Assembly: GCA_951406725.2 (NCBI GenBank) | Contig: OX597838.1 | Location: 2,046,001 to 2,110,000 of the forward strand | Length of the DNA stretch: 64,000 bases | Direction: 5' to 3' | Source: Octopus vulgaris | Lineage: Eukaryota | Shown: in pieces, positions 28,693 to 28,949 of the stretch | Layout of the letters: each line of letters starts with the position of its first letter | How positions within the stretch are numbered: the stretch's first letter is position 1 | Program-made: the position numbers and the translations under genes | Notes under the pieces: model-generated | Database searches by the model: none | What the model was told of the DNA's origin: nothing | The model's input: the letters and a program-made list of their open reading frames with translations, nothing else

Positions 28693-28947
28693 TAATTAGA
28701 GACAAAACCACTATTTTGCAAAACAAACAAGGAAAGACTTAATCAATACATAAAATTTTAATAAAAAGTCAAAAAAACCGCCACTACAATTGTTTCTTGT
28801 CCTGATCGACAATCTTCAGGTGGACTTCCAATTTTCAAGTCAGTTTCAAATTATGAAGTGGCGGTTTTTTTGACTTTTTATTAAAATTTTATGTATTGAT
28901 TAAGTCTTTCCTTGTTTGTTTTGCAAAATAGTGGTTTTGTCTCTAAT

Positions 28948-28949
<2 letters not shown>
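28693..28949. repeat. Perfect 93-bp inverted repeat with a 71-bp spacer (PLE-type fragment 28610-28949)
   Basis: Arms 28693-28785 and 28857-28949 checked base by base, no mismatch. The flank 28610-28720 has a diverged homologue at 48731-48860. Confidence 0.95.
28781..28823 (-). ncRNA. Minimal type-I hammerhead ribozyme, structurally intact
   Basis: Minus strand CCAC-CUGAAGA-UUGUC gaucag GACAA-GAAAC-AAUU-GUA-GUGG: stem I CCAC/GUGG, 5-bp stem II, full catalytic core, palindromic ACAAUUGU helix III, GUA cleavage triplet. Confidence 0.88.

Follow-up and report, generated by a model that had tools for sequence, protein, structure and literature searches.

The 93-bp inverted repeat between positions 28693 and 28949 of the window (the whole 64,000-nucleotide stretch of Octopus vulgaris DNA that was analysed) is probably a young copy of a non-coding retroelement, made by an enzyme of the Penelope-like element (PLE) type from uncleaved RNA, whose cDNAs were joined at a four-base microhomology that straddles a predicted hammerhead cut by chance. 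The locus is a real feature. An earlier note on this DNA had proposed that the inverted copy was reverse-transcribed from an RNA whose 5' end was made by ribozyme self-cleavage, a model that, if true, would have provided in vivo evidence for hammerhead cleavage. The repeat family points the other way: the template of most copies appears to have been sense RNA that was uncleaved and in many cases spliced, and their ends lie at a likely transcription start site. The observations behind this reading are the size of the family, the anatomy of its copies, the loss of an intron, two fixed outer ends, the distributions of arm ends and the microhomology.

Comparison of the arms within the window found 28693-28785 and 28857-28949 to be exact reverse complements (93/93) around a spacer of 71 nt, as previously claimed, and a repeat search of the window stretched the inverted repeat to 100 nt at 98%. 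We number family positions on the minus strand, with 0 as the first base after the predicted hammerhead cut. The arm holds one base 5' of this cut, and positions 28857-28860 form an overlap of 4 bases compatible with either arm. Because the overlap fits both arms, the junction is an interval that starts 1 nt before the cut and extends to 3 nt past it. The claim that the boundary sits at the ribozyme cut therefore holds to the extent that this interval includes the cut, but the boundary is not a point. The features of the locus are as follows.

28517..28611, no strand: left (TA)n microsatellite, the likely insertion target; nearly all listed family tail ends run into (TA)n.
28596..28860, minus strand: long arm with the complete spliced leader (likely start site, hammerhead, tail end), aligning from -76 to +189, a span that recurs in many copies.
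28596..28692, minus strand: tail of ~95 nt, on one arm only, reflecting the two outer-end classes among 109 arms.
28693..28785, minus strand: duplicated part of the long arm, which is the left arm of the inverted repeat, from the arm comparison.
28781..28823, minus strand: intact minimal hammerhead motif of type I, predicted to be cut between 28785 and 28784, from the motif scan and conservation across subfamilies.
28832..28833, minus strand: exon-exon junction, where unspliced copies have a GT-AG intron of 1.1-1.8 kb, from copy comparison.
28833..28859, minus strand: exon 1, whose first base, 28859, is the likely transcription start; 31/33 start-window junctions stop exactly there.
28857..28860, plus strand: 4-nt microhomology at the inversion junction, complementing 28782-28785 and straddling the predicted cut.
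28857..28949, plus strand: short inverted arm without a tail, from the arm comparison and alignment.
28951..29015, no strand: right (TA)n microsatellite, the likely insertion target.

Position 28859 lies within an initiator-like motif. An Inr-like TCACT is reported for pLTRs in PMC3846280. By analogy with the start sites described in PMC11167929, the tail at 28596..28692 is likely the stretch between two sites at which reverse transcription starts. No host-gene exon was recognised among the ORFs of at least 110 aa in 18-40 kb of the window. A second, older inverted pair (28172-28232 / 28414-28474; 61 bp, 92%) lies between TA tracts and is probably another PLE-type insertion; by eye, its outer end resembles the 3' end of an autonomous PLE family, and it has relatives in loci L194 and L082. 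A fragment of another dispersed repeat occupies 27965-28140, with the start of a hammerhead-like core at 28118 on the minus strand and relatives of 71-86% in at least seven distinct fetched places, and 34400-35386 is a fragment that we recognised by eye as the C-terminal region of a LINE-type reverse transcriptase.

Scanning the window on both strands for the motif located the hammerhead core at 28819 on the minus strand, and its stems comprise a stem II of 5 bp, a stem III of 2 bp with a palindromic loop and a stem I of 4 bp. Rfam made no hammerhead call here, neither at the gathering threshold nor at E<=10. Upon folding of the whole strand the hammerhead was not the best fold (z 0.40), and the monomer hammerhead is predicted at -6.0 kcal/mol versus -12.2 for the best alternative fold. 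The motif scan, together with conservation across subfamilies, points to a putative ribozyme. The fetched copies are near-invariant across subfamilies in the core, in stem I and in the four inner pairs of stem II, while they vary at position 7 and in loop II; true covariation is confined to the outer stem II pair, itself not always paired. According to PMC4209133, such motifs show low activity and dimers are needed. Two copies (L203 and L227) have a common 6-nt deletion directly after the predicted cut, which removes the 3' strand of stem I.

A 22-mer from the arm has 4,329 exact matches across the genome assembly (2.8 Gb, 227 contigs), placing the window copy in a large repeat family. Longer copies carry a GT-AG intron just upstream of the ribozyme, of 1132 nt in L041 and 1117 nt in L093, with a longer version of 1815-1830 nt in L061, L088 and L100. 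The window copy lacks the intron and has the precise exon-exon junction of the L041/L093 type. This precise loss implies an RNA step in the ancestry of the window copy, with the ribozyme strand as the sense strand, and bears out its proposed origin as a retrotransposition product. Two spliced copies, L029 and L084, retain upstream sequence, so the window copy could also derive from a source locus already devoid of the intron. For this octopus family, the sense polarity speaks against the antisense-template idea put forward in PMC3846280. L061 (C1:13258500-13268200) is a 9.2-kb insertion with 4-kb inverted arms of 99.6% identity, and it holds a 1.74-kb tandem unit of exon 1 and intron without the ribozyme, the motif being found only at the outer ends of the array.

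Across some 260 nt, the window copy differs by 1 base from L002 and L005. Arms are perfect over their overlap in 47/97 fetched pairs, and in 8/32 pairs of the position-ordered sample described below, while subfamily markers agree between arms in 210/210 comparisons (77 of them at the commonest marker, and not independent). This agreement suggests that the two arms share a template molecule or a source locus. The lack of mismatches had been attributed either to youth or to arm-to-arm conversion; youth fits the single difference over ~260 nt, and we dropped conversion because perfect arms are common and youth suffices. Separately, T>C differences in sequencing run X10, guessed to be RNA, were considered as RNA editing, and this was rejected: they are on single contigs, the family is multicopy, and they also appear in other runs.

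Inverted repeats between microsatellites assemble poorly, so we weighed whether the locus could be an assembly artefact or the terminal inverted repeat of a DNA transposon (MITE). Taken together these are scarcely credible. The same asymmetric anatomy is present at dozens of loci with differing junctions, the intron loss is precise, and a junction-covering short-read contig is present in sequencing run X1. That contig is 46 nt long and covers 28831-28876 with no difference at a depth of 47; it is below the 31-letter bridging rule, and run X1 may be the assembly's own sample. No junction contig was among the contigs listed for runs X2, X5 and X14, an absence that proves nothing. We consider an assembly artefact unlikely because the architecture recurs at dozens of loci and the X1 contig covers the junction. 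The MITE was rejected on its asymmetric ends, variable inner junctions and intron loss, where fixed terminal repeats and no RNA intermediate would be expected.

Arm ends were mapped in a position-ordered sample, consisting of the loci of the first 100 listed 22-mer matches, all on contig C1 and not selected for their junctions, which yielded 109 unique arms. The top 30 BLAST loci were kept out of this histogram because similarity ranking to the query favours the query's junction, and the tallies omit L014, a locus with arms at -70 and +10 that the BLAST set already included. Outer ends fell into two classes, with 46/109 arms ending at +180 or more (with the tail) and 63/109 at +95 to +116 (without it). 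The breakpoint test on which the earlier note had staked its model shows no peak at the cut, either in this sample or in the genome-wide counts given below. The main peak lies ~75 nt upstream, at the 5' end of exon 1 (-85 to -62), where 37/109 arms start; a further 5/109 start in the rest of exon 1, 1/109 upstream of exon 1, and 19/109 enter the intron. The ribozyme body (-48 to -4) accounts for 13/109 starts, the cut (-3 to +3) for 2/109, the stretch from +4 to +30 for 29/109, and positions beyond +30, which are under-sampled by the anchor, for 3/109. Consequently 75/109 arms begin at least 4 nt upstream of the cut, i.e. they read through it. Per nucleotide, the stop rate is 0.37% at the cut and 0.39% within the ribozyme body, compared with 1.01% from +4 to +30, which is ~2.7-fold over the ribozyme. 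Copies reaching exon 1 are mostly spliced in this sample (43 arms versus 19 entering the intron).

Genome-wide counts in two-base windows, with patterns that demand two non-native bases before the element, gave a similar picture. The cut window had 10 junctions, one of them (L105) a short fragment, and 5 of the 10 start exactly at position 0. Control windows had 6 (-7/-6) and 7 (+2/+3, of which two resemble one-base deletions), so that the cut is nominally the highest of these three, with a binomial p of 0.21. The start-site window had 33 junctions, 31 of which stop at one identical base, a sharpness that marks a likely transcription start site in exon 1, with a lower expected capture of ~0.4 versus 0.5 as estimated from base composition. 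At +6/+7 there were 59 matches; the 30 inspected included 10 native variants and, by eye, 4 internal deletions, leaving about half as true junctions.

We then collected junctions built like the one in the window, defined as one arm reaching exon 1 and a partner starting at ~-37 to +37, from exact matches only, genome-wide. There were 47: 15 with a partner start upstream of the cut, 31 with one downstream and a single one, the window copy, whose partner start is at the cut; four loci are unpaired, their partner starts (+6, +10, +10 and ~+20) being read from context. Partner starts cluster at -34 (6), +6 to +10 (10 resolved, 3 from context), +13 (6) and +19 to +22 (6 resolved). Microhomology of at least 4 nt is available at -44 (outside the sampled range), -34, -1, +20/+22 and +31, and overlaps of at least 3 nt are present in 22/43 resolved junctions. 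The 4-nt match on offer at the cut site was used once, making it the less used among such sites in range. The arm reaching exon 1 bears the tail in 28/43 resolved junctions and is tail-less in 15/43. The match of the inversion boundary to the predicted cut is thus likely the product of the four-base microhomology.

The cleavage model in its most concrete form would have the short arm be run-off cDNA from a second, self-cleaved RNA of the same source, joined to the full-length cDNA of an uncleaved molecule. The junction interval does include the cut, and the ribozyme has a conserved core. Five arms have their first base exactly after the cut, L104 joins poly(A) to that base, and R2 offers a precedent for ribozyme-defined 5' junctions (PMC3774820). 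Against these stand a cut count not significantly above the controls (10 versus 6 and 7), the 2/109 arms and 1/47 like-built junctions at the cut, a 4-nt microhomology that is available there and is less used than others in range, and a partner arm that is itself uncleaved. The description of PAc in PMC11167929 further reports that ribozyme mutants left insertion unchanged in vitro and that no RNA-seq ends fell at the cut. We therefore consider it improbable that the inner end of the short arm is an RNA 5' end made by cleavage. The junctions are not concentrated at the cut, as R2-like ribozyme-defined 5' ends would be. A small cleaved class may nevertheless exist: the cut window is nominally the highest of the three small windows, though not significantly so, 5 of its 10 junctions start exactly at position 0, and L104 joins poly(A) there. 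In the tandem junction of L104 (C8:73218261 region), a run of 19 A abuts the first base after the cut with nothing in between; of all single copies, this one is the strongest candidate for a genuine footprint of cleavage.

A single cDNA might also account for both arms, with a full-length molecule snapping back at the four complementary bases to leave the 71-nt loop and extending itself into the short arm, the ribozyme taking no part. Perfect arms, the 210/210 markers and the microhomology are all compatible with such a fold-back, as is the correlation of arm ends (Spearman 0.74, 32 pairs); self-priming has been proposed for PLE palindromes (PMC3846280), and the window copy, whose longer arm bears the tail, suits it. 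It cannot, however, give the 15/43 junctions in which the start-reaching arm is tail-less, nor does it easily explain the fixed outer end of the short arm. As a separate account we give it very little weight; it is a version of the preferred reading and leaves our conclusion about the cut as it stands.

Ends accumulate a second time 6-26 nt downstream of the cut. Of the 32 pairs in the ordered sample, 21 have two arms that cross the cut, 11 have none that does and no pair has just one (L014 would add one); the pairs in which neither crosses often have stutter repeats, which blur the true ends between +7 and +25. The predicted fold has a run of U (+7 to +13) paired with the core of the hammerhead, and we prefer to read the ends at +6 to +26 as putative stalling at RNA structure. 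The last 152 nt of the intron are AT-richer (0.88 versus 0.81), yet just 3/19 intron-entering arms end there. These downstream ends might instead be trimmed run-off from cleaved RNA, or a displaced ribozyme footprint, from self-cleaved RNA templates whose 5' bases are locked in stem I. We regard such a footprint as unlikely. If it were true, the genome would hold evidence that hammerheads cleave in vivo while Penelope elements retrotranspose, and copies like L104 would be exact traces.

Under the preferred reading, with an uncleaved template, a Penelope-type RT/GIY-YIG enzyme would nick both strands of the (TA)n, and each 3' end would prime reverse transcription at one of two internal sites, ~+95 and +189. 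The nicking of both strands and the priming at two sites are modelled on PAc, the Poseidon of green anole (PMC11167929). The tail-bearing cDNA would run through the intact ribozyme to the RNA 5' end at the start site. There its 3' end could anneal to four complementary bases of a second cDNA or, by folding back, of its own strand; repair would then fix the inversion. The two outer-end classes, into which all 109/109 arms fall, match the two start sites and two-strand extension described for PAc. By its anatomy, the window copy is best read as a non-autonomous PLE-type element and was likely mobilised by a Penelope-type enzyme, which we infer from these resemblances. It has a head-to-head inverted 5'-truncated copy, a tail on one end and insertion into (TA)n, as well as a minimal hammerhead of type I whose loop III is palindromic (unrecognised by Rfam). 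The leader holds a likely start site and, in unspliced copies of the family, the intron.

Published systems resemble this family to different degrees. EN+ PLEs, as described in PMC3846280 and PMC8557442, share the head-to-head truncated copy, the one-end tail and microsatellite targets, along with a start site and 5' intron within the terminal repeat and a hammerhead lying next to the intron's 3' end (also PMC4209133, which describes paired minimal hammerheads 100-700 bp apart on opposite strands). They differ in that no ORF was found in the octopus family and its tail is ~95 nt, versus a published 30-40; EN+ PLEs are also known for keeping introns, whereas the family is mostly spliced when it reaches exon 1. 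In PAc, too, reverse transcription starts at two internal sites that lie downstream of the hammerhead, targets are AT-rich, and uncleaved RNA is the dominant template, with no ends reported at the cut. It is, however, autonomous, with an ORF that starts in the ribozyme, and was studied in vitro, whereas this family is non-coding and known from its genomic ends. Non-LTR retrozymes (bioRxiv 10.64898/2026.07.22.740005) are also non-coding, carry a type I hammerhead and are thought to be PLE-derived, but they form tandem arrays with a ribozyme per unit where the family forms dispersed head-to-head pairs, and we do not place it among them. In R2 the ribozyme cut defines the genomic 5' junction (PMC3774820), whereas here ends pile up at the likely start site. 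For the hammerhead in PLEs, template processing has been proposed (PMC4209133) and dispensability in vitro described (PMC11167929); the end pattern of the family agrees with the latter result. In largely open-access literature, we found no study in which the genomic ends of PLEs are compared with the position of the hammerhead cut, and none that reports this family. Its thousands of young copies are a handy data set for the mechanics of PLE junctions, while the single locus is ordinary.

No ORF combining RT and GIY-YIG, as in an autonomous EN+ PLE, was found near the locus, nor did a scan of 100 loci, the 9.7-kb copy L061 among them, turn one up. Genome-wide, 148 GIY-YIG matches were scored, many in 781-codon frames, and one protein of this type has a GIY-YIG domain and an RT domain just under Pfam's cut-off. 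The 3' end of this RT + GIY-YIG family also comes in two lengths before (TA)n, and the family has no detectable homology with the leader of the window copy; no autonomous element with a homologous leader was found in 30 GIY-YIG loci or 11 longer stretches. Relatives of the arm, at 91% or 83%, lie at the truncated 5' junction and face outward in 2/30 GIY-YIG loci (L174/L181 and L158/L182). At L181 (C11:50840500-50850400) the relative is directly fused at 8095-8263, and at L182 (7019-7102) a short TA tract intervenes. These two cases hint at machinery shared between the family and an autonomous PLE. L181 looks like a single insertion from two different RNAs. Eight loci (L183-L188, L199 and L200) hold a young autonomous PLE family. 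It has open frames of 771-781 codons, another open frame upstream, a motif of cysteines ahead of the GIY-YIG domain that is Neptune/Nematis-like by the description in PMC8557442, and a degenerate hammerhead-like motif near the 3' end.
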